Below, one piece after another: positions 1,172 to 44,566 of a stretch of 48,415 bases of DNA. The stretch spans positions 1 to 48,415 of the forward strand of contig CBDUTA010000002.1 in assembly GCA_965369785.1 (NCBI GenBank), given 5' to 3'. This DNA comes from an uncultured bacterium. Its GTDB lineage: Bacteria > Acidobacteriota > UBA6911 > RPQK01 > JADFOI01. The notes below the pieces were generated by a model, which was not told the DNA's origin, did not search any database, and saw only the letters and a program-made list of their open reading frames with translations. The position numbers and the translations under genes are program-made. Positions within the stretch are counted from its first letter, which is position 1, and the number at the start of each line of letters is the position of its first letter.

Positions 1172-4100
1172 GTGAGCAAAATCTCGTGGATCAGAGACGA
1201 CGTTGCTCCCGAACAGAGAAGTTGGGAGCAGTTTTACAGAAACCGATGGCAATACGACAAGATTGTCAGAAGCACTCATGGGGTGAATTGTACAGGAGGG
1301 TGCACGTGGAACATTCACGTGAAAGACGGCATTGTCACCTGGGAAATGCAAGGGTTGGATTATCCAAAACTAGAGGCCCGATTACCGCCCTATGAGCCGC
1401 GGGGATGTCAGCGGGGCATTTCCTTCTCCTGGTACTTATACAGCCCACTGCGGGTGAAATATCCTTACGTGCGCGGTGCTCTTATTGACCTGTGGCAGAA
1501 GGCGCGATCGGAGTACGACGATCCGGTGGAGGCCTGGACCTCCCTGGTGGAAAATCCCAAAGCCCGGAAGCGCTGGCAAAAAGCTCGGGGCAAAGGGGGG
1601 TTTCGCAGAGCCTCCTGGGAAACGGTCCTGGAAATCATTGCTGCCTCCACTATCCATACCATCAAGAAACACGGACCGGACAGAATAGCCGGTTTTTCTC
1701 CCATTCCGGCCATGTCCATGCTCAGCTACGCCTCCGGGTCACGTATGTTGCAGCTCATGGGTGGATCGTCACTTTCCTTTTACGACTGGTACTCCGATTT
1801 GCCCAACGCCTCACCCGAGACCTGGGGCGAGCAAACGGATGTCCAGGAATCCGCCGACTGGTTTAACGCCAAGCTATTGGCAGTCATGGGCTCCAACCTG
1901 AACATGACTCGAACGCCCGACTGCCACTTCGCGGCGGAGGCCAGACACAACGGGACCAAAATGTACGTCTTCTCCCCTGATTTTAGTCAGGTCTGCAAGT
2001 TCGCCGACGAGTGGATGTCCATTAATGCGGGGCAGGACGGTGCCTGGTGGATGGCTGTCAATCATGTCCTCTTGAAGGAGTTTCACCATGAGGAGCAGAC
2101 GCCTTACTTTCTCCAGTATGCCAAGAAGTACACCGATTCTCCTTTCCTGGTGGAGCTCAAGAAAGATGGCGAGACTTATGAAGCGGGCCAGTTACTTCGT
2201 GCCAATCGGCTGGGGAAATACGCGGACCAGGAAAATGGGCAGTGGAAATTTCTGGTGTGGGATTCTGGTGAGGGCATTCCCAAGATGCCCTTGGGCAGTG
2301 TAGGTCATCGTTGGGGAAAAGAGAAAGGGAAGTGGAACCTGCTGCTCAAGGATGGAGTCGATGGCAGCAAGATCGATCCCACCCTGAGTTTTCTCCAGGG
2401 GAACGATGGTGAAGTGCTGGTTCGCTTCGATGATTTTGGAGAAGGCAGCAGTGTTGCCCGCGGAGTTCCCGTCAAGGAAATCGAAACCAAAGATGGAACG
2501 GTCACCGTGGCCACCGTCTATGACCTGCTCATGGCTCAATATGGCGTCCCCAGGGGGTTGAAAGGGGAGTATCCGGAGAGCTACGATGACGAAAATGCCC
2601 CCTATACCCCAGCCTGGTCGGAGAAGTATACGGGTCTGTCCCGCGACGATCTGCTGAGATTTGCCCGGCAGTGGGCGGTGACCGCTAAACACACCAACGG
2701 AAAGTGTACGGTCATTATCGGGGCTGGAATCAACCACTGGTATCACGCCAACCTGATGTACCGAGCCGCCATTCAGGCCCTGCTTTTCACTGGTTGTGTG
2801 GGGGTCAATGGTGGAGGATTAGCACATTACGTGGGACAGGAAAAACTGGCACCTGCTGAGCCCTGGGGGGCAATCGCCTTCGCCAAAGACTGGATCTCCT
2901 CGCCGCGTTTGCAAAACGCTCCCAGCTGGCATTATGTAAATACGGACCAGTGGCGCTACGAAAAGGCCTTTACCGATTATCATACGGTTCCACAGAAGCA
3001 GCCTGAGAACTCGTTGGCCCGCGGCCACACCATGGATACCCAGATCCGTGCCGTCCGTAACGGCTGGATGCCCTTCTATCCCCAATTTCAGAAAAGTTCT
3101 CTCGCTCTTGCACAGGAAGCCATTGAGGCTACGGGTTCAAGTGAGGCGAAGGACATCATCGACTATATCGTCCAGCAGCTGAAAAGCAGAAAGCTCAAAT
3201 TTTCGGTGGAAGATCCCGATTCTCCGGACAACTGGCCGCGCATCTGGTTTATCTGGCGCGGCAATGCATTGATGTCCAGTGCCAAAGGACATGAGTATTT
3301 TCTGAAACATTATCTGGGTACTCACACCAATGCCATCGCCGACAGCGAGTTTGCAAGGGAGACGGTCAAGGAAGTGACCTGGCACGACAAAGTCCCTGAG
3401 GGAAAGATGGATCTGGTGGTGGATCTGAACTTTCGCATGGATACCTCCGCACTGTATTCAGACATTGTTTTGCCTGCCGCAACCTGGTACGAGAAGGCGG
3501 ATCTGAATACCACCGATCTTCACAGTTTTATCCACCCGCTATCCCCCGCCGTTCCGCCTTGCTGGGAGTCAAAGAGTGACTGGGACATTTTCAAAGCCAT
3601 TGCCCAGAAGTTCTCCCAACTGGCGGAAAAACACTTTCCAGAACCGGTCCCCGATATTGTCACCATGCCGCTGGCTCATGACACGCCCGCCGAGATTGCC
3701 CAGCCGGAGATCGAAGACTGGATTACAGGGGAGGTGGAGGCCATTCCGGGGAAAACCATGCCCGGTATGGAGTTGGTCTATCGCGATTATCGAAATCTAT
3801 ACAACCAGTTTATCGCCTTCGGTCCACTGGCACGAAAAAACGGGATTGGAGCGCACGGCACACACTATGACATCGACGATTTCTACGACAAGCTCGTGGA
3901 AACCGGTCCCACGGTCCAGTGGAATGGCAGTCACTACCCTTCCCTTCGGGAGGCTGAAGAGGCCTGCGACGTCGTCCTCTGCCTGGCCACCGTCACCAAT
4001 GGGGAACTGGCCTATCGATCGTACAAGAACATGGAGGAGAAAGTGGGACTGCCCCTGGGTGATCTGGCTGAGAAGTCCCGCGACATCCGGGTCAATTTCC

Positions 4101-4810
4101 AGGACATCCAGGCCCAGCCCCGACGGTTTTTGAACAGCCCTATGTGGTCGGGACTGCTGACCGACGGAAGGGCCTACTCACCGTTCACCTACAACGTGGA
4201 GAAACAGGGTCCCTGGAGAACCCTGACTGGAAGGCAACACCTTTATCTGGACCATCCCGGGTATCTTCAGTTCGGCGAGCATCTGCCCACCTACAAGCCC
4301 AAACCCACCCCTTCTCAATATGCAGATTTGGTCTTCACCAAAGAAGAGACCCAATCGATGATGTTGAATTATCTTACACCGCACGGGAAATGGCACATCC
4401 ATTCCACCTTTAGCGACAACCACCGGATGACGACCCTCTCCCGGGGCGTTGAACCGCTTTGGATCAATCACAAGGACGCAGAGGAGTTGGACATAAACGA
4501 CAACGATTGGGTTGAAGTCTACAATGACCACGGCGTCGTCGTCACCCGGGCCTGCGTGAGTGCGCGCATTCCCCGGGGAATTTGCATTCAATACCATGCT
4601 CCTGAACGCACCCTCTCTGTCCCCAAGTCACCTTTGAGAGGGAATCGTCGTGCCGGGGGCCACAACAGTCTCACCAGAGCACGCCTCAAACCCAACTTTC
4701 TGATTGGTGGTTATGGGCAATTCACCTACAGCTTTAATTACTGGGGCCCGACTGGGTGCAACCGGGATACCCACATTCTGGTCAGAAAACTTCCGGCTCT
4801 GAAGTGGTAG
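1172..4810 (+). CDS. narG: Respiratory nitrate reductase alpha subunit
   Basis: GTG 1172 is preceded by AGGAGG at 1161-1166. The N-terminus [22 protein letters not shown] carries the NarG H-x3-C-x3-C FS0 motif. The product is 1212 aa with no twin-arginine signal. The ORF-track start at 1058 is an upstream extension overlapping the previous gene. Confidence 0.97.
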
Positions 4811-4834
4811 ATATGAGAATTGGAGTGTCGTGAC

Positions 4835-6325
4835 ATGGATATCAGATCACAAATTTCTATGGTCTTCCATCTGGATAAATGTATCGGCTGCCACACCTGC
4901 ACCGTCGCCTGCAAGAATATCTGGACGGACCGAAAAGGGACCGAGTACATGAATTGGAACAACGTCGAGACCAAACCAGGCACCGGTTTTCCGACCAAGT
5001 GGGAGGATCAGGAACAGTACAAGGGTGGTTGGGAAAACAAAAATGACAAGCTGGAACTCAAGTCCACCAGCAAAGAGAAATTGGTCTTCAATATCTTCCA
5101 TCACCCTAACATGCCCAGTATGGATGATTACTACGAACCTTGGACCTATAAGTACGATGACCTCTTGAACGCTCCGGAGGGAGACGATCAACCCACGGCC
5201 ATACCGGTCTCCATGATCACGAACGAGTACATAGACATCGAGTCCGGACCCAATTGGGATGACGACTTAGGGGGGTCTCCTATCTACGCAAAGAACGATC
5301 CGAATCTGGATGTTCTGACAGCCGAGCAGCGAGACCAGCTAAACGCTGTGGAGCGTCTGGTCATGTTCTACCTGCCGCGCATCTGCAATCACTGCCTGAA
5401 TCCCTCCTGCGTGGCCGCTTGTCCTTCCGGGGCTCTCTACAAAAGAGGAGAGGACGGTATCGTACTCATCGATCAGGAGCGCTGCCGGGGATGGCGTTCC
5501 TGTGTTGCTGCCTGCCCCTATAAGAAAATCTATTACAACTGGTCAACCGGAAAATCGGAAAAATGCATTCTCTGTTTTCCCCGACTTGAATCGGGTCAGG
5601 CTCCCGCCTGCTTTCACTCCTGTGTGGGGCGCATTCGCTATCTGGGCGTGCTTCTGTACGATGCGGAACAAATGGAGGAGGTGGCCAAGAAGCCGGATGC
5701 TGAATTGGTGGAGGCCCATCGCGGCATGATTTTGGATCCCTTCGATCCGGAAGTGATCAGAGCAGCTGGGGAGAACGGCATCCACGAAGATGTGATCCGG
5801 TCCGCACAAAAATCTCCCGTCTACAAGTTCGTCAAGGAATGGAAAATCGCCCTGCCACCGCATGCTGAGTACCGCACGCTTCCCATGCTCTTTTATGTGC
5901 CGGCCATGCTGCCCGTCATGTCCAGCTTCGACGGCAAGACAGTAAAGAATTTGACGGAAGGAATCTTCCCTGACTTTGAAAAGGCACGCGTTCCCATCGA
6001 GTACCTGGCTAACCTTTTCTCCGCAGGAAATCAAGGCATCCTGCGTTACGTCCTCAAAAAACAGATGGCGGTGAGAACTTATCGACGCGCGGTGACGGTG
6101 GGTGATGTGGAGATGGAGGTGGCACAGAGAATGTTGCTTGAAGCGGATTGTTCTCCTGAGGAAGCAGAGGCCATCTACCGCCTTACTGCACTGTGTAGCT
6201 TTGATGACCGTTTCGTGATTCCTCCGGCCCACCGCGAGGAAGCGATCGAGATGATGCGTGATCCTTTGGAACACAAGCAGTCGGTGGGCTTTGGCTTTCG
6301 TGATGAACCGCAGCGGGGGGCTTAG
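4835..6325 (+). CDS. narH: Respiratory nitrate reductase beta (Fe-S) subunit
   Basis: The N-terminus MDIRSQISMVFHLDKCIGCHTCTVACKN is classic NarH, and several ferredoxin-type Cys clusters follow. GGAG lies 9 nt upstream of ATG 4835. Confidence 0.97.
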   Translation: MDIRSQISMVFHLDKCIGCHTCTVACKNIWTDRKGTEYMNWNNVETKPGTGFPTKWEDQEQYKGGWENKNDKLELKSTSKEKLVFNIFHHPNMPSMDDYYEPWTYKYDDLLNAPEGDDQPTAIPVSMITNEYIDIESGPNWDDDLGGSPIYAKNDPNLDVLTAEQRDQLNAVERLVMFYLPRICNHCLNPSCVAACPSGALYKRGEDGIVLIDQERCRGWRSCVAACPYKKIYYNWSTGKSEKCILCFPRLESGQAPACFHSCVGRIRYLGVLLYDAEQMEEVAKKPDAELVEAHRGMILDPFDPEVIRAAGENGIHEDVIRSAQKSPVYKFVKEWKIALPPHAEYRTLPMLFYVPAMLPVMSSFDGKTVKNLTEGIFPDFEKARVPIEYLANLFSAGNQGILRYVLKKQMAVRTYRRAVTVGDVEMEVAQRMLLEADCSPEEAEAIYRLTALCSFDDRFVIPPAHREEAIEMMRDPLEHKQSVGFGFRDEPQRGA

Positions 6326-6595
6326 TGTCTCGTCCCATGAATACCATGATGTTTGCTGATGGGGCTTGCGAGGGGAGGTCAAGGAGCGAGGAGGAGGCGA
6401 TGCAGGGACATCGGCGACGACGAGCGACACAGAGATCGTCCGCAACCTCCATCAGCCCGAAGGGTGGCGGCGGGACGGCATCGATTTCTTTGTCGCTCCT
6501 CCTCCACGATGCACAGACATCGCGTCGTCGTCGCTTCGCGAACTCGACGCCGTCGCGCTCGCCACAAACGTCACCGTATTTATGGAACGAGACAC
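6325..6595. mobile_element. 271-bp non-autonomous element (MITE family A) with 19-bp imperfect terminal inverted repeats and a TA target-site duplication
   Basis: The left end is GTGTCTCGTCCCATGAATA (6325-6343). The right end is TATTTATGGAACGAGACAC (6577-6595), whose reverse complement GTGTCTCGTTCCATAAATA matches 17 of 19 positions. TA flanks both ends (6323-6324 and 6596-6597). No protein-like ORF lies inside. Confidence 0.75.
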
Positions 6596-6607
6596 TAACT
6601 AGAGAAA

Positions 6608-7153
6608 ATGTACATTCATTTAGCTCATTTACTCAGTTATCCGGACAGTCGGTACAAGCAGTACCTGGATGATTTGATCCAGTCATTAGGGTCGGATCTG
6701 GCTACCACTCGGAAGTTGGAGCCCTTTTCGGACTTCATCAACCAAAGCGAAATCAAGGTTGTGGAGGAGCTGTTTACCAGGACCTTTGATATGAATCCCG
6801 CCACCTGTCTGGAGGTGGGCTGGCACCTCTATGGTGAAGATTACAAGAGGGGAGAGTTCCTTGCAAAAATGCGTCGGGCGCTGGTCCAAGAAAAGGTGGC
6901 GGAATCGGTGGAGCTTCCCGATCACATGAGTCACTGTCTGAAGCTGCTGGCGAACCTGGAACTCCATGAAGCAAGGGGCTTTGCTCAAGAGTATCTCTTG
7001 CCGTCAATTTCAAAAATCCTGGAGGGCCTGGAACAGGACAATCCCTTTCGATACCCCATTGACGCGTTAAAGAGCCTGTTGGTGAATCGGCTTGGAGCCG
7101 ACCCCACAGCAAAGGAAAACACACGGTTGTACGACCTGGAAGGTGTTGGATAG
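6608..7153 (+). CDS. narJ: Nitrate reductase molybdenum-cofactor assembly chaperone (delta subunit)
   Basis: A 181-aa acidic helical protein sits between narH and narI. It has TorD/NarJ-like segments (FTRTFDMNPATCLEVGWHLYGEDYKRGEFLAKMR, ELPDHMSHCLKLL). Confidence 0.8.
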   Translation: MYIHLAHLLSYPDSRYKQYLDDLIQSLGSDLATTRKLEPFSDFINQSEIKVVEELFTRTFDMNPATCLEVGWHLYGEDYKRGEFLAKMRRALVQEKVAESVELPDHMSHCLKLLANLELHEARGFAQEYLLPSISKILEGLEQDNPFRYPIDALKSLLVNRLGADPTAKENTRLYDLEGVG

Positions 7154-18604: not shown

Positions 18605-18750
18605 GGGAACACTAAAGCCTTCCCGATTCTCACCGATATGATCCATGGTCCCTGTTTGCTCATGAAAGGTGAAGTCCACCCAGTCTTGCTCTCACAGATC
18701 ATTTTGGTACCTGACCTCACAACAGGCTGGCACCGGTTGGTTTCTGTAGA

Positions 18751-18947
18751 GCCCGGATTATGCATAGGTTCTTGTCACGAAAGGGGTGGCGCCGACCTGA
18801 GTGCGCTGCGCCACGCGCGACTGAGGCCCCCGCAAACGTACTGTAGGGTACGTTGAGGAGGCCGGGGGCACCCGCTTGCGGGTCGCGCAACGCTGGCAGG
18901 ACGGATGATTTCGCCGCTGCAGTAGAGAATTTATGCATAATCCGGGC
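18751..18947. mobile_element. MITE family B, full copy 1 (197 bp), with perfect 16-bp TIRs GCCCGGATTATGCATA
   Basis: The left TIR is at 18751-18766 and the right TIR TATGCATAATCCGGGC at 18932-18947. The interior holds GC-rich hairpins (ACCCGC-TT-GCGGGT and ACGTAC..GTACGT). The element ends 20 nt before the HDOD gene start. Confidence 0.8.
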
Positions 18948-18967
18948 TAAGGTAAAGGAGATAAACG

Positions 18968-24796: not shown

Positions 24797-24818
24797 CATT
24801 TATGAAACGAGGCACTAA

Positions 24819-30382: not shown

Positions 30383-31222
30383 ATGTTTGATCAGGCAGCC
30401 GCAGTTAGATCGATAGCACAACAAGGAGGGGGACCGGTGTCTGGACTGGGTTACGATACAGGTTGTCAAGTCATTGCGGTAACCAGCGGCAAAGGAGGTG
30501 TTGGAAAGACGAATGTGGTGGTGAATGTCTCCATTGCGCTGCAGCGAGCTGGTCAGAAAGTGGCGATTCTGGATGCCGATTTTGGACTTGCGAACGTCGA
30601 TGTGTTTTTTGGGCTGACCCCAACCTATCACGTGGGGCACGTCCTGGAAGGCAGCCGCACTCTGGAGTCAATCGTCCAAGAGGAAGCCGAGGGTGTTCAC
30701 ATTATACCGGCCAGTTCGGGTATTCAGGAACTGACCGAGATCGACGATGAACACCGGGAAAGGATCTTCCTTCAGCTGAACGAAATTCTGAACCACTACG
30801 ACTTTCTTCTCATTGATACGGCAGCGGGGATCTCTGACAACGTCATGAGTCTTCTCACTGTCTCTCGCACAGTGGTGGTGGTCTCCATGCCGGAACCCAC
30901 TGCGATGCTGGATGCTTATGCACTTATTAAGGTCTTGCTCAGGAGAAACAAGGCCAAAGAGGTTTTGCTTCTCATGAACTCTGTTCGAAACAGACATGAG
31001 GCGCATCAGGTGTTTCAGAAGTTGGCTCATGTAGTTGAGAGATACCTGGGTCAAACGGTCAAGTTGCTCGGCTTTGTCCTGAAAGATGAAAAGGTCTCCC
31101 AAGCCGTGTGCCAACAGGTCCCTCTTCTGGTGAGCCACCCCGGTACACGAGTCAGTCGGTGTTTTACTGAGATTGCAGACTCCTTACTGAGTGCTTCGTT
31201 CTGTAAATACGATGAGGTTTGA
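30383..31222 (+). CDS. flhG: MinD/ParA-type flagellar number regulator FlhG (FleN/YlxH)
   Basis: It has the deviant Walker A SGKGGVGKTN. The position between flhF and fliA fits. Confidence 0.88.
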   Translation: MFDQAAAVRSIAQQGGGPVSGLGYDTGCQVIAVTSGKGGVGKTNVVVNVSIALQRAGQKVAILDADFGLANVDVFFGLTPTYHVGHVLEGSRTLESIVQEEAEGVHIIPASSGIQELTEIDDEHRERIFLQLNEILNHYDFLLIDTAAGISDNVMSLLTVSRTVVVVSMPEPTAMLDAYALIKVLLRRNKAKEVLLLMNSVRNRHEAHQVFQKLAHVVERYLGQTVKLLGFVLKDEKVSQAVCQQVPLLVSHPGTRVSRCFTEIADSLLSASFCKYDEV

Positions 31223-31330
31223 TGATGGGTTTTACGAGGGGGGACAAGGAGAGGGAGAGTTCGGGGACAGTTCCCGGAATCTCCCTATTCCCCTAAAACA
31301 GAAGACGTTCAATTGAAGTGATTTATTGCT

Positions 31331-34880: not shown

Positions 34881-34990
34881 GTGATCAGATGGGGTGTCAA
34901 TCGGGTTCCAGGCCGCATTTCTCACACCAGGTGGTGGCGGAACGGCGGAAGGGCCGATGCAGGAGAGCGGGTGTAAAACATGCGGGGTTA

Positions 34991-35181
34991 GCCCGGACTA
35001 TGCATAAATTTTCTACTGTGGCGCCCAAACCATCCGCCCTGACTGCGTTGCGCTCGCTCGGCCTCCTCGACGTACCGTACAGTACGTCTGCGGTGCCCGA
35101 CCCGCAAGCGGGTGCCCCCGCGCGCCTGGTCAGGACGGCGTTTTCGGCGCCTCGCTACGAAAACCTATGCATAATCCGGGC
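34991..35181. mobile_element. MITE family B, full copy 2 (191 bp), inverted relative to copy 1, flanked by TA/TA
   Basis: The TIRs are GCCCGGACTATGCATA (34991-35006) and TATGCATAATCCGGGC (35166-35181). TA sits at 34989-34990 and at 35182-35183. The interior aligns with the reverse complement of copy 1. Confidence 0.8.
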
Positions 35182-35264
35182 TAGAGAAAGTGTTCACAGG
35201 AAGTCACCAGAGAGCGGAGGTTTTCTCCACAAAAGGGAATCAAGGGGACAAATTTTCCGCCACA

Positions 35265-44228: not shown

Positions 44229-44336
44229 GAATGTGGGAGGCACATCAGGTGCCGAATCCCCGCTGTCCCAGGCTACCTCTCTGCCTCCCCTTCGTGTTGT
44301 CGTGCATTCGTGCTGTCGGAGCTCGCTTCGAGCGCG

Positions 44337-44420
44337 TTCCAGGCTCCAGGTTCCAGGTCCGGTTTGGAATTTGGAATTTTAAATTTGTTTGGGATTTGGG
44401 ATTTTGAATTTTGGGTTTTC
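44337..44420 (+). repeat. 7-8-nt periodic low-complexity block: (TTCCAGGN)x3, then (TTTGGAA)x2 and (TTGGGAT)x2, ending in T-tracts
   Basis: The read is TTCCAGGCTCCAGGTTCCAGGTCCGGTTTGGAATTTGGAATTTTAAATTTGTTTGGGATTTGGGATTTTGAATTTTGGGTTTTC. Confidence 0.8.
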
Positions 44421-44566
44421 CGGCCTCCGGCCGGTGCTTTTACACCGCAAACCTGCTCCTCGCCCACTGTCAGGAATTTGTCGGGATGACGTTTCCGTGA
44501 CGGCATTAAACACCCTCAACCTCTTAATTCATTGAAAACAAGCCGGAAATTGAAATCGATCAGAGC

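Follow-up and report, generated by a model that had tools for sequence, protein, structure and literature searches.

What separates narH from narJ in the nitrate reductase (nar) cluster of an uncultured Acidobacteriota bacterium, and does it matter to the operon? In the window analysed here, which is the whole 48,415-nt stretch of contig CBDUTA010000002.1 (assembly GCA_965369785.1, forward strand), the two genes lie 282 nt apart, and the remaining junctions of the cluster measure 9, 9 and 24 nt. An earlier reading of this DNA, called the original prediction below, had proposed that a miniature inverted-repeat transposable element (MITE) is inserted exactly on the narH stop codon. Our results support this proposal: the intervening sequence is a multi-copy, non-coding, inverted-repeat element. 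With a probability of roughly 0.85, we favour the reading that it belongs to a high-copy family of non-autonomous MITEs in marine Acidobacteriota, apparently undescribed so far, and that this copy was inserted on the stop codon of narH.

A repeat copy inserted on the narH stop codon

The narH gene (4820-6325, + strand) encodes the beta subunit of nitrate reductase and was recognised by the Pfam families Fer4_11 and Nitr_red_bet_C; the names of narG, narI and the MFS transporter gene were confirmed by Pfam as well. It is followed by a full-length copy of the element (271 bp, 6325-6595, + strand) and by narJ (6608-7153, + strand), a chaperone gene with an ATG start at 6608, whose identity was established via its homologues carrying PF02613. 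The left end of the element, GTGTCTCGTCCCATGAATA (6325-6343), and the reverse complement of the right end, GTGTCTCGTTCCATAAATA (6577-6595), agree in 17 of their 19 positions, and the repeat runs on to 34 nt at 85% complementarity (6322-6355 and 6565-6598). A TA dinucleotide is found on both sides, at 6323-6324 and at 6596-6597, and the left TA plus G6325 forms the present narH stop TAG, the last base of which comes from the element.

The interior contains two modules on the + strand. Module 1 (6388-6423), with a majority frequency of 0.94-0.96 in the family, consists of segment A (GAGGAGGAGG, 6388-6397), the hairpin CGATGCAGGGACATCG and segment B (GCGACGACGA, 6414-6423). Module 2 (6496-6534) consists of A' (CTCCTCCTCC, 6496-6505), the hairpin CGATGCACAGACATCG, whose loop varies by 0, 1 or 2 nt among family copies, and B' (TCGTCGTCGC, 6525-6534). 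Both hairpins have the form CGATG-N6-CATCG (6398-6413 and 6507-6522), and the complementarity of A to A' and of B to B' is perfect. The coordinates, the terminal inverted repeats, the TA flanks, the composite stop codon, the order A-B-A'-B' and the hairpins are thus all present as originally described. They go well beyond chance, because random sequence of the window's length would contain the end motif, with up to three mismatches allowed, 0.01 times and the RNA fold has a z score of -8.3 compared with shuffled sequences. The G+C content of the element is 60.5% versus 52.4% for the window.

A scan of one genome per prokaryotic species for the exact end motif yielded 91 stretches, nearly all of them in about eight Acidobacteriota metagenome-assembled genomes (MAGs), including the complete 3.59-Mb chromosome OY760074.1. 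A second scan, of metagenomes with the conserved interior motif, added at least 120 further loci. All counts and fractions reported for the family refer to the matches listed by both scans, and the genome sequence around the loci was examined in 8-kb blocks. At least 124 full-length and 111 partial copies were present in 216 loci, corresponding to at least 78 distinct insertion sites in Acidobacteriota MAGs and marine-sediment metagenomes, so that the further copies implied by the original prediction are numerous. Full-length copies are 75-96% identical to the window copy (median 92%); the family length has its mode at 272-273 bp, with variants of 162-288 bp. Similarity between the window and the other loci is confined to the 271 bp, the nar flanks remaining unmatched. 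In four marine-sediment metagenomes, the summed contig depth was about 2,500-6,000 on the element versus 0-40 on the flanks (approximately 100-fold). The metagenome contigs part from the window precisely at 6323/6324 and at 6596-6598 and continue into many different sequences, which fixes the element boundaries independently. Many short-read contigs of the MAGs end inside a copy of the repeat. A search of a plasmid collection with the element gave no match. Two copies were seen on short contigs binned to other phyla, a full copy labelled Nitrospinota (L013) and a 162-bp copy labelled Actinomycetota (L032); these are probably binning errors, possibly cases of horizontal transfer.

The nearest nar clusters, whose NarJ proteins are 53-60% identical to that of the window, show the same gene order narG-H-J-I-MFS and do not carry the element at the narH-narJ junction, where their gap is 1-2 nt versus the 282 nt of the window. 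Their NarH proteins end in RGA, RGF or RGY at the residue homologous to the end of the window NarH (RGA). Removal of the element and one TA yields ..GCT TAA CTAGAGAAA ATG with a narH-narJ gap of 9 nt. This pre-insertion junction, which had been reconstructed in the same way before, is plausible, and NarH of the relatives ends at the same residue. The flanks, TTA on the left and TAA on the right, are consistent with a TA duplication in TTAA, a target that also fits the Y-TA-R logo of one of the two subfamilies described below. The course of events would have been that a transposase acting in trans cut and pasted the element into the TA of T-TA-A, the ancestral TAA stop of narH, and that this insertion duplicated the target TA, the right copy being the TA of the ancestral stop. 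Since the copy starts with G, and TA plus G is a stop codon, the narH stop was restored and NarH left unchanged. The window NarJ (6608-6640) begins about six residues later than its nearest homologues in L092, L095 and L096 (MYIHLAHLL.. versus MRTGNPLYLHLGHL..). The N-terminus is not conserved, and the later start may be unrelated to the insertion. An exact look-up of the window NarJ returned nothing.

In 66 of 97 copies, the element can be read from end to end in one frame without a stop, and a Shine-Dalgarno-like GGAGG lies ahead of an ATG that is conserved at element position 76 (window 6400). One might therefore regard the region as a native, conserved narH-narJ spacer or as a small gene. 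We consider this hardly credible, and the data already contradict it: the nearest nar clusters have no such sequence in their 1-2 nt gap, and the same 271 nt recur at the 78 or more unrelated sites. The copies differ by indels of 1, 2 and 14 nt, their lengths (269-274 nt) differ by non-multiples of three, and the synonymous share of the common variants, 32%, is close to the random expectation of 27%. Judged by these frame-breaking indels and the lack of a synonymous excess, the element is not protein-coding, and a conserved protein, which would have spoken against the original prediction, is not encoded in the region. A peptide starting at the conserved ATG showed an excess of third-position variation; it was rejected after failing the synonymous/non-synonymous test, and loop indels break its frame. 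Downstream genes starting at an ATG in the right end are no more frequent than expected from chance frame matching. Rfam gave no hits at the gathering score for the whole window and only chance-level hits (E of 0.29 or above) in a permissive search of 6300-6620, and a promoter/terminator consensus scan over 6150-6750 found none. The central stem with ATTTCTTTG was dismissed as a terminator, since the U-rich run is base-paired as part of that stem when the first 185 nt are folded. Neither a gene nor a regulatory RNA should be annotated in the narH-narJ spacer.

The position at a stop codon is not peculiar to the nar locus. An open reading frame (ORF) of at least 80 codons ends in a TAG made of the flanking TA and the terminal G, on either side, in 24 of 121 copies and at 17 of 78 distinct sites. 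G is the first base of every copy. Other copies lie directly after a TAA stop or provide a stop within their first 35 nt, and of the three frames that run into either end, two meet a stop within 35 nt. As TA plus G gives a stop and most frames are closed early, stop codons in tight operons are safe landing sites, and landing on them is a habit of the family. In three MAGs, insertions of differing subtypes that arose independently follow the stop codon of the same orthologous gene, within 0-5 nt of one another, which shows that the family has transposed into such sites several times and separately. In keeping with ongoing mobility, some copies are nested or truncated, and some are reduced to lone ends or, in one 35-bp copy, to just two ends. 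This last copy (L055:130-164) is a palindrome of two ends only (GTGTCTCGTCCCATGAATACCATGGGACGAGACAC), and lone ends adjoining genes were seen as deletion derivatives in L025, L023 and L039. In the copy L001:1612-1884, the first CGATG..CATCG hairpin has an intact stem but carries its loop in inverted form (TCCCTG instead of CAGGGA), which looks like a hairpin-mediated flip.

Two subfamilies, a hybrid copy and the mobilising enzyme

The ends of the family are of two kinds, C-type (C10, G15, C21) or T-type (T10, A15, G21, reading inward), and nearly all copies carry the same type at both ends. The positions that separate the types are limited to the terminal 21 nt or so, the interior being almost identical. 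C-type copies have TA/TA flanks in 26 of 45 cases, within the logo Y-TA-R, and identical 3-mers in none. Of the 68 T-type copies, 32 are flanked by identical 3-mers, TAA/TAA or TTA/TTA, in the context C-TWA-G, and only two by plain TA/TA. Such paired subfamilies with a near-identical interior lend themselves well to the study of how a MITE changes its transposase partner.

The window copy combines a C-type left repeat (6325-6355, + strand) with a T-type right repeat (6565-6595, - strand). Both of its end mismatches fall on subtype-diagnostic positions and are explained by this hybrid nature. The combination of a C-type left and a T-type right end was found in 2 of 121 copies, the window copy and L063, and a few others show different mixtures. 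The hybrid ends may stem from recombination or gene conversion among the copies, or from a chimeric assembly. The last of these can be extended to the locus as a whole: the window copy, or at least its hybrid structure, would then be an assembly artefact of a repeat longer than the reads. Mixed ends are restricted to a handful of the 121 copies, many MAG contigs break within copies, and there are contigs that share the left flank with one locus and the right flank with another. In this last case (L038, L048 and L061), a single copy has a right flank 95% identical to that of another MAG's copy and a left flank 96% identical to a third locus, a mosaic that reflects either a repeat-mediated rearrangement or a chimeric assembly at the repeat. 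We nevertheless regard an artefact at the nar locus as quite improbable. The genes narH and narJ are natural neighbours, and the TA duplication is clean at both junctions, with a reconstructed junction that matches the relatives, which a misjoin would not produce. A second copy with a C-type left and a T-type right end was moreover recovered in an independent assembly (L063).

The element had originally been attributed to an IS630/Tc1-mariner enzyme. This attribution was not confirmed. It was based on the TA duplication only, which does not extend strictly across the family: it holds for the window copy and the C-type, and the T-type subfamily duplicates the 3-bp TWA in CTWAG. The partner transposase was not found, and no IS630 element was seen in the loci examined. 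All pairs of ends lying 320-4000 bp apart in the 216 loci proved to be separate MITE copies. The neighbours of lone ends in L007, L044, L050 and L051 were considered as parts of a parent transposon and rejected, being housekeeping genes or a transposase outside the repeat end. The latter is a 464-aa transposase ORF on the chromosome OY760074.1 (L044:2641-4035, - strand), which lies just outside a truncated copy, is not bounded by repeat ends and appears IS1380-like, as judged from a reading of its sequence. Because no transposase bounded by family ends was found, mobilisation in trans is deduced from the anatomy of the element.

PIF/Harbinger transposases have relatives in the bacterial IS5 family, and a TTA/TAA duplication inside CTTAG is a PIF/Harbinger signature; some IS5 subgroups generate duplications of 2-4 bp at YTAR-like targets. 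We see a little less than an even chance that the family was moved by an IS5/PIF-Harbinger-type transposase and not by one of the IS630/Tc1-mariner type, a question that concerns the enzyme only. The duplication of TWA in the palindrome C-TWA-G by the T-type, to which the right end of the window copy belongs, points in this direction, and IS5-type duplications at YTAR-like targets would also cover the TA in Y-TA-R of the C-type. On the other hand, the C-type subfamily and the flanks of the window copy fit IS630 equally well, no transposase of either the IS5/PIF or the IS630 type was found next to matching ends in the loci examined, and the sole transposase near a copy is the IS1380-like one outside the repeat end. 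Whichever enzyme acted, the reading of the locus as a MITE insertion is the same.

Orientation, conservation and a possible role in the mRNA

Among copies located between co-directional ORFs, as assigned by a long-ORF heuristic, 39 are oriented with the genes and 7 against them; after collapsing shared sites, the ratio is 29:5 (p = 4e-5). The window copy has the preferred 'sense' orientation. The bias is unlikely to arise at the insertion step, because the targets are palindromic. Replication strand was rejected as its cause, since the 14 copies in OY760074.1 occur in both orientations within the same GC-skew arm. The residual spacers around the copies are short, as in operons. Majority frequencies reach 0.94-0.99 in the interior versus 0.87 in the inverted ends, and copies within a MAG (91.7% identity) are no more alike than copies between MAGs (90.5%). 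Orthologous copies were uninformative on selection: the most divergent shared site represents independent insertions, and in closer pairs the element and its flanks have diverged about equally. Contigs from marine-sediment metatranscriptomes contain family members and run on into diverse flanks; none derives from the nar locus.

For the + strand of the window copy, the predicted minimum-energy fold is one long imperfect hairpin (-141.7 kcal/mol, with the z score of -8.3 given above); the - strand folds with -132.3 kcal/mol (z = -6.2). The original prediction had envisaged mutually exclusive helices or a pseudoknot formed by the interior segments. It was right in that both helices exist and are stable (A:A' -18.1 and B:B' -17.6 kcal/mol), and as they cross, they would together form a pseudoknot. 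The predicted fold is nevertheless the single long hairpin, in which the sequences of the two small hairpins are paired to one another, and A pairs poorly with B' (-7.9 kcal/mol) and B poorly with A' (-1.4 kcal/mol). A nested fold with B:B' enforced reaches -126.6 kcal/mol and so falls short of the minimum by about 15 kcal/mol. The interior helices show too little variation for covariation, and the sites that vary often break pairs. Alternative A:A' and B:B' conformations would still be physically reasonable on energetic grounds.

The copy is presumably transcribed within the nar mRNA, where it would fold as a long imperfect hairpin of 271 nt, the base of which would bring the narH stop to about 13 nt from the start of narJ. 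The terminal stem, about 30 bp long and nearly perfect, would be a plausible target of a double-strand-specific or orientation-dependent RNase, as in the Correia and ERIC repeats. The element probably alters processing, stability or coupling of narGH versus narJI and is unlikely to be silent. An effect on the expression of narH and narJ, as suggested in the original prediction, may be plausible, and the orientation bias of the family makes an effect at the RNA level plausible. Models of nitrate respiration or of the operon structure at this locus should expect altered coupling or mRNA processing from 282 nt of very stable hairpin ahead of narJ.

Several points have to be set against our reading of the locus as a MITE insertion with likely consequences for the transcript. 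The nearest NarJ relative is only 60% identical, so that a true empty allele of the exact site is missing from the comparison, and no reads joining across an absent element were seen at the low depth available. For a high-copy repeat of about 271 nt, a short-read interior and hybrid ends could have been threaded from other copies. No transposase gene bounded by family ends occurs in the 216 loci, within the 8-kb genome blocks. Gene orientation was taken from the simple ORF heuristic, not from a gene finder, and the metatranscriptome assemblies are unstranded and may contain DNA. Finally, compensatory changes are found only in the terminal 30 nt, where transposase binding would in any case require matched ends, and interior pairs are invariant or broken by one-sided changes.

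The same features raise the question of whether the host retains the element because it serves a function, beyond simply tolerating it. The element would in that case act at cistron boundaries as a portable RNA module: it might provide a site of processing or insulation, stabilise the mRNA upstream, or form a hairpin that joins stop and start codon so that translational coupling is preserved. The 29:5 bias relative to the flanking genes, the short operon-like spacers and the interior that is more conserved than the inverted ends would fit such a role. Copies within a MAG are, as mentioned, no more alike than those between MAGs, although the genes flanking shared sites can be only 59-82% identical, and the same interior is found on two kinds of ends with different duplication lengths. 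We nonetheless hold a host function to be unlikely. There is neither covariation for an interior structure nor a match to an Rfam family, and the conservation and the star-like pattern could just as well result if a constrained master element keeps being copied or if the family spreads horizontally. A bias can also arise if the other orientation is merely more harmful, and the many truncated copies and lone ends suggest dispensability. The more specific proposal that the conserved interior of about 210 nt is a selected, transcribed hairpin module, joined to TA- and to TWA-duplicating ends, retained in one orientation and acting on operon mRNA, appears to us somewhat more doubtful still. Should it be true, the family would be a mobile operon-punctuation element at cistron boundaries of marine Acidobacteriota and not a purely selfish MITE, and the module could act in processing, in insulation or by holding a stop codon close to the following start codon at the stem base. 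The family offers a natural data set on why some MITEs are orientation-biased and conserved across species.

Other repeats in the window and comparison with known elements

Two relics of the family lie elsewhere in the window, in the flagellar cluster, where Pfam confirmed the names of fliP, the FlhG-like ATPase and the FliA-like sigma factor. A lone T-type right end (24797-24815, - strand) fills the fliP-fliQ junction; it stands directly after the fliP stop TAG and is followed by TAA, and 18 nt of it, ATTTATGAAACGAGGCAC, are identical to the right end of the copy L059. The second relic is a diverged left end (about 83% identity) of approximately 70 nt (31192-31260, + strand), which contains the stop of the FlhG-like gene (30383-31222) and sits upstream of the fliA-like sigma factor gene. 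Both relics are located exactly at gene ends.

The window also holds two copies of a second MITE-like family of about 195-200 bp (18750-18948 and 34989-35183), in opposite orientations, with ends GCCCGGATTATGCATAGG.. and TA flanks. Related copies, with 72-84% identity to these two, were found in more than 15 loci belonging to the same MAGs of Acidobacteriota. The second family abuts a copy of the first in L028, L040 and L090 and is nested inside one in L057 and L172. A 14-nt insertion, CCGCAAGCGGGTGCCCC, is present in the first-family copies L012, L036 and L090 and in the 284-288 bp class (12 copies), and its reverse complement is part of the interior motif GGGGCACCCGCTTGCGGGTC of the second family (window 18868-18887). 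This shared segment points to an exchange of modules between the two repeat families. With tens of copies per genome, the first family together with the second breaks short-read assemblies of marine-sediment Acidobacteriota and explains some chimeric contigs. A further stretch at 44315-44445 is of low complexity, rich in GGAATTT/GGGATTT and lacking inverted ends; sequences with 75-83% similarity occur in the Acidobacteriota and metagenome loci L064, L128, L150, L197 and L200.

Compared with known elements, the family resembles the IS630/Tc1-mariner (Stowaway-like) MITEs in the TA duplication of the window copy and the C-type and in the Y-TA-R target (CTAG/TTAA-like). It differs from them in that the T-type, with an almost identical interior, does not duplicate TA, and neither an IS630 transposase nor matching ends were found in the loci. 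With the Tourist-like elements (PIF/Harbinger, eukaryotes) and the IS5-derived MITEs of bacteria it shares the TWA duplication in CTWAG of the T-type, a PIF/mPIF signature. In contrast to these, the C-type duplicates TA only, the host is bacterial, and no IS5-like partner was found in the loci.

The family also resembles small repeats of other bacteria. The Correia elements (CREE/NEMIS) of Neisseria are likewise small, non-coding sequences with terminal inverted repeats and a TA duplication, which occur in many copies beside and between genes and fold into a long hairpin (PMC10969869, PMC3049150). In Neisseria they are co-transcribed with the genes, and RNase III cuts the resulting mRNAs where the inverted ends are paired (PMC10969869, PMC3049150). 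Correia elements are, however, only about 100-155 bp long, belong to another phylum and have no sequence similarity to the present family of 272 bp with its TWA subfamily; RNase cleavage, a promoter and an IHF site are Correia features. The ERIC/IRU (RU-1) repeats of enterobacteria and Yersinia are also imperfect palindromes with a sequence strikingly conserved between species; they lie in intergenic regions that are transcribed and exert orientation-dependent effects on transcripts via RNase E (PMC10969869, PMC3049150, PMC2229807). ERIC measures 127 bp and is unrelated in sequence, and an orientation effect in the present family would be an inference from the 29:5 bias. The pneumococcal BOX, RUP and SPRITE repeats are high-copy, structured and intergenic as well and are placed non-randomly relative to the neighbouring genes, with which the pneumococcal repeats are co-transcribed (PMC3049150), but they have another architecture, BOX being modular, other hosts and no sequence relation. 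What is new, compared with all of these, is a MITE family of a known kind that combines two subfamilies of different duplication length, a hybrid copy, a habit of landing on stop codons and an orientation bias.

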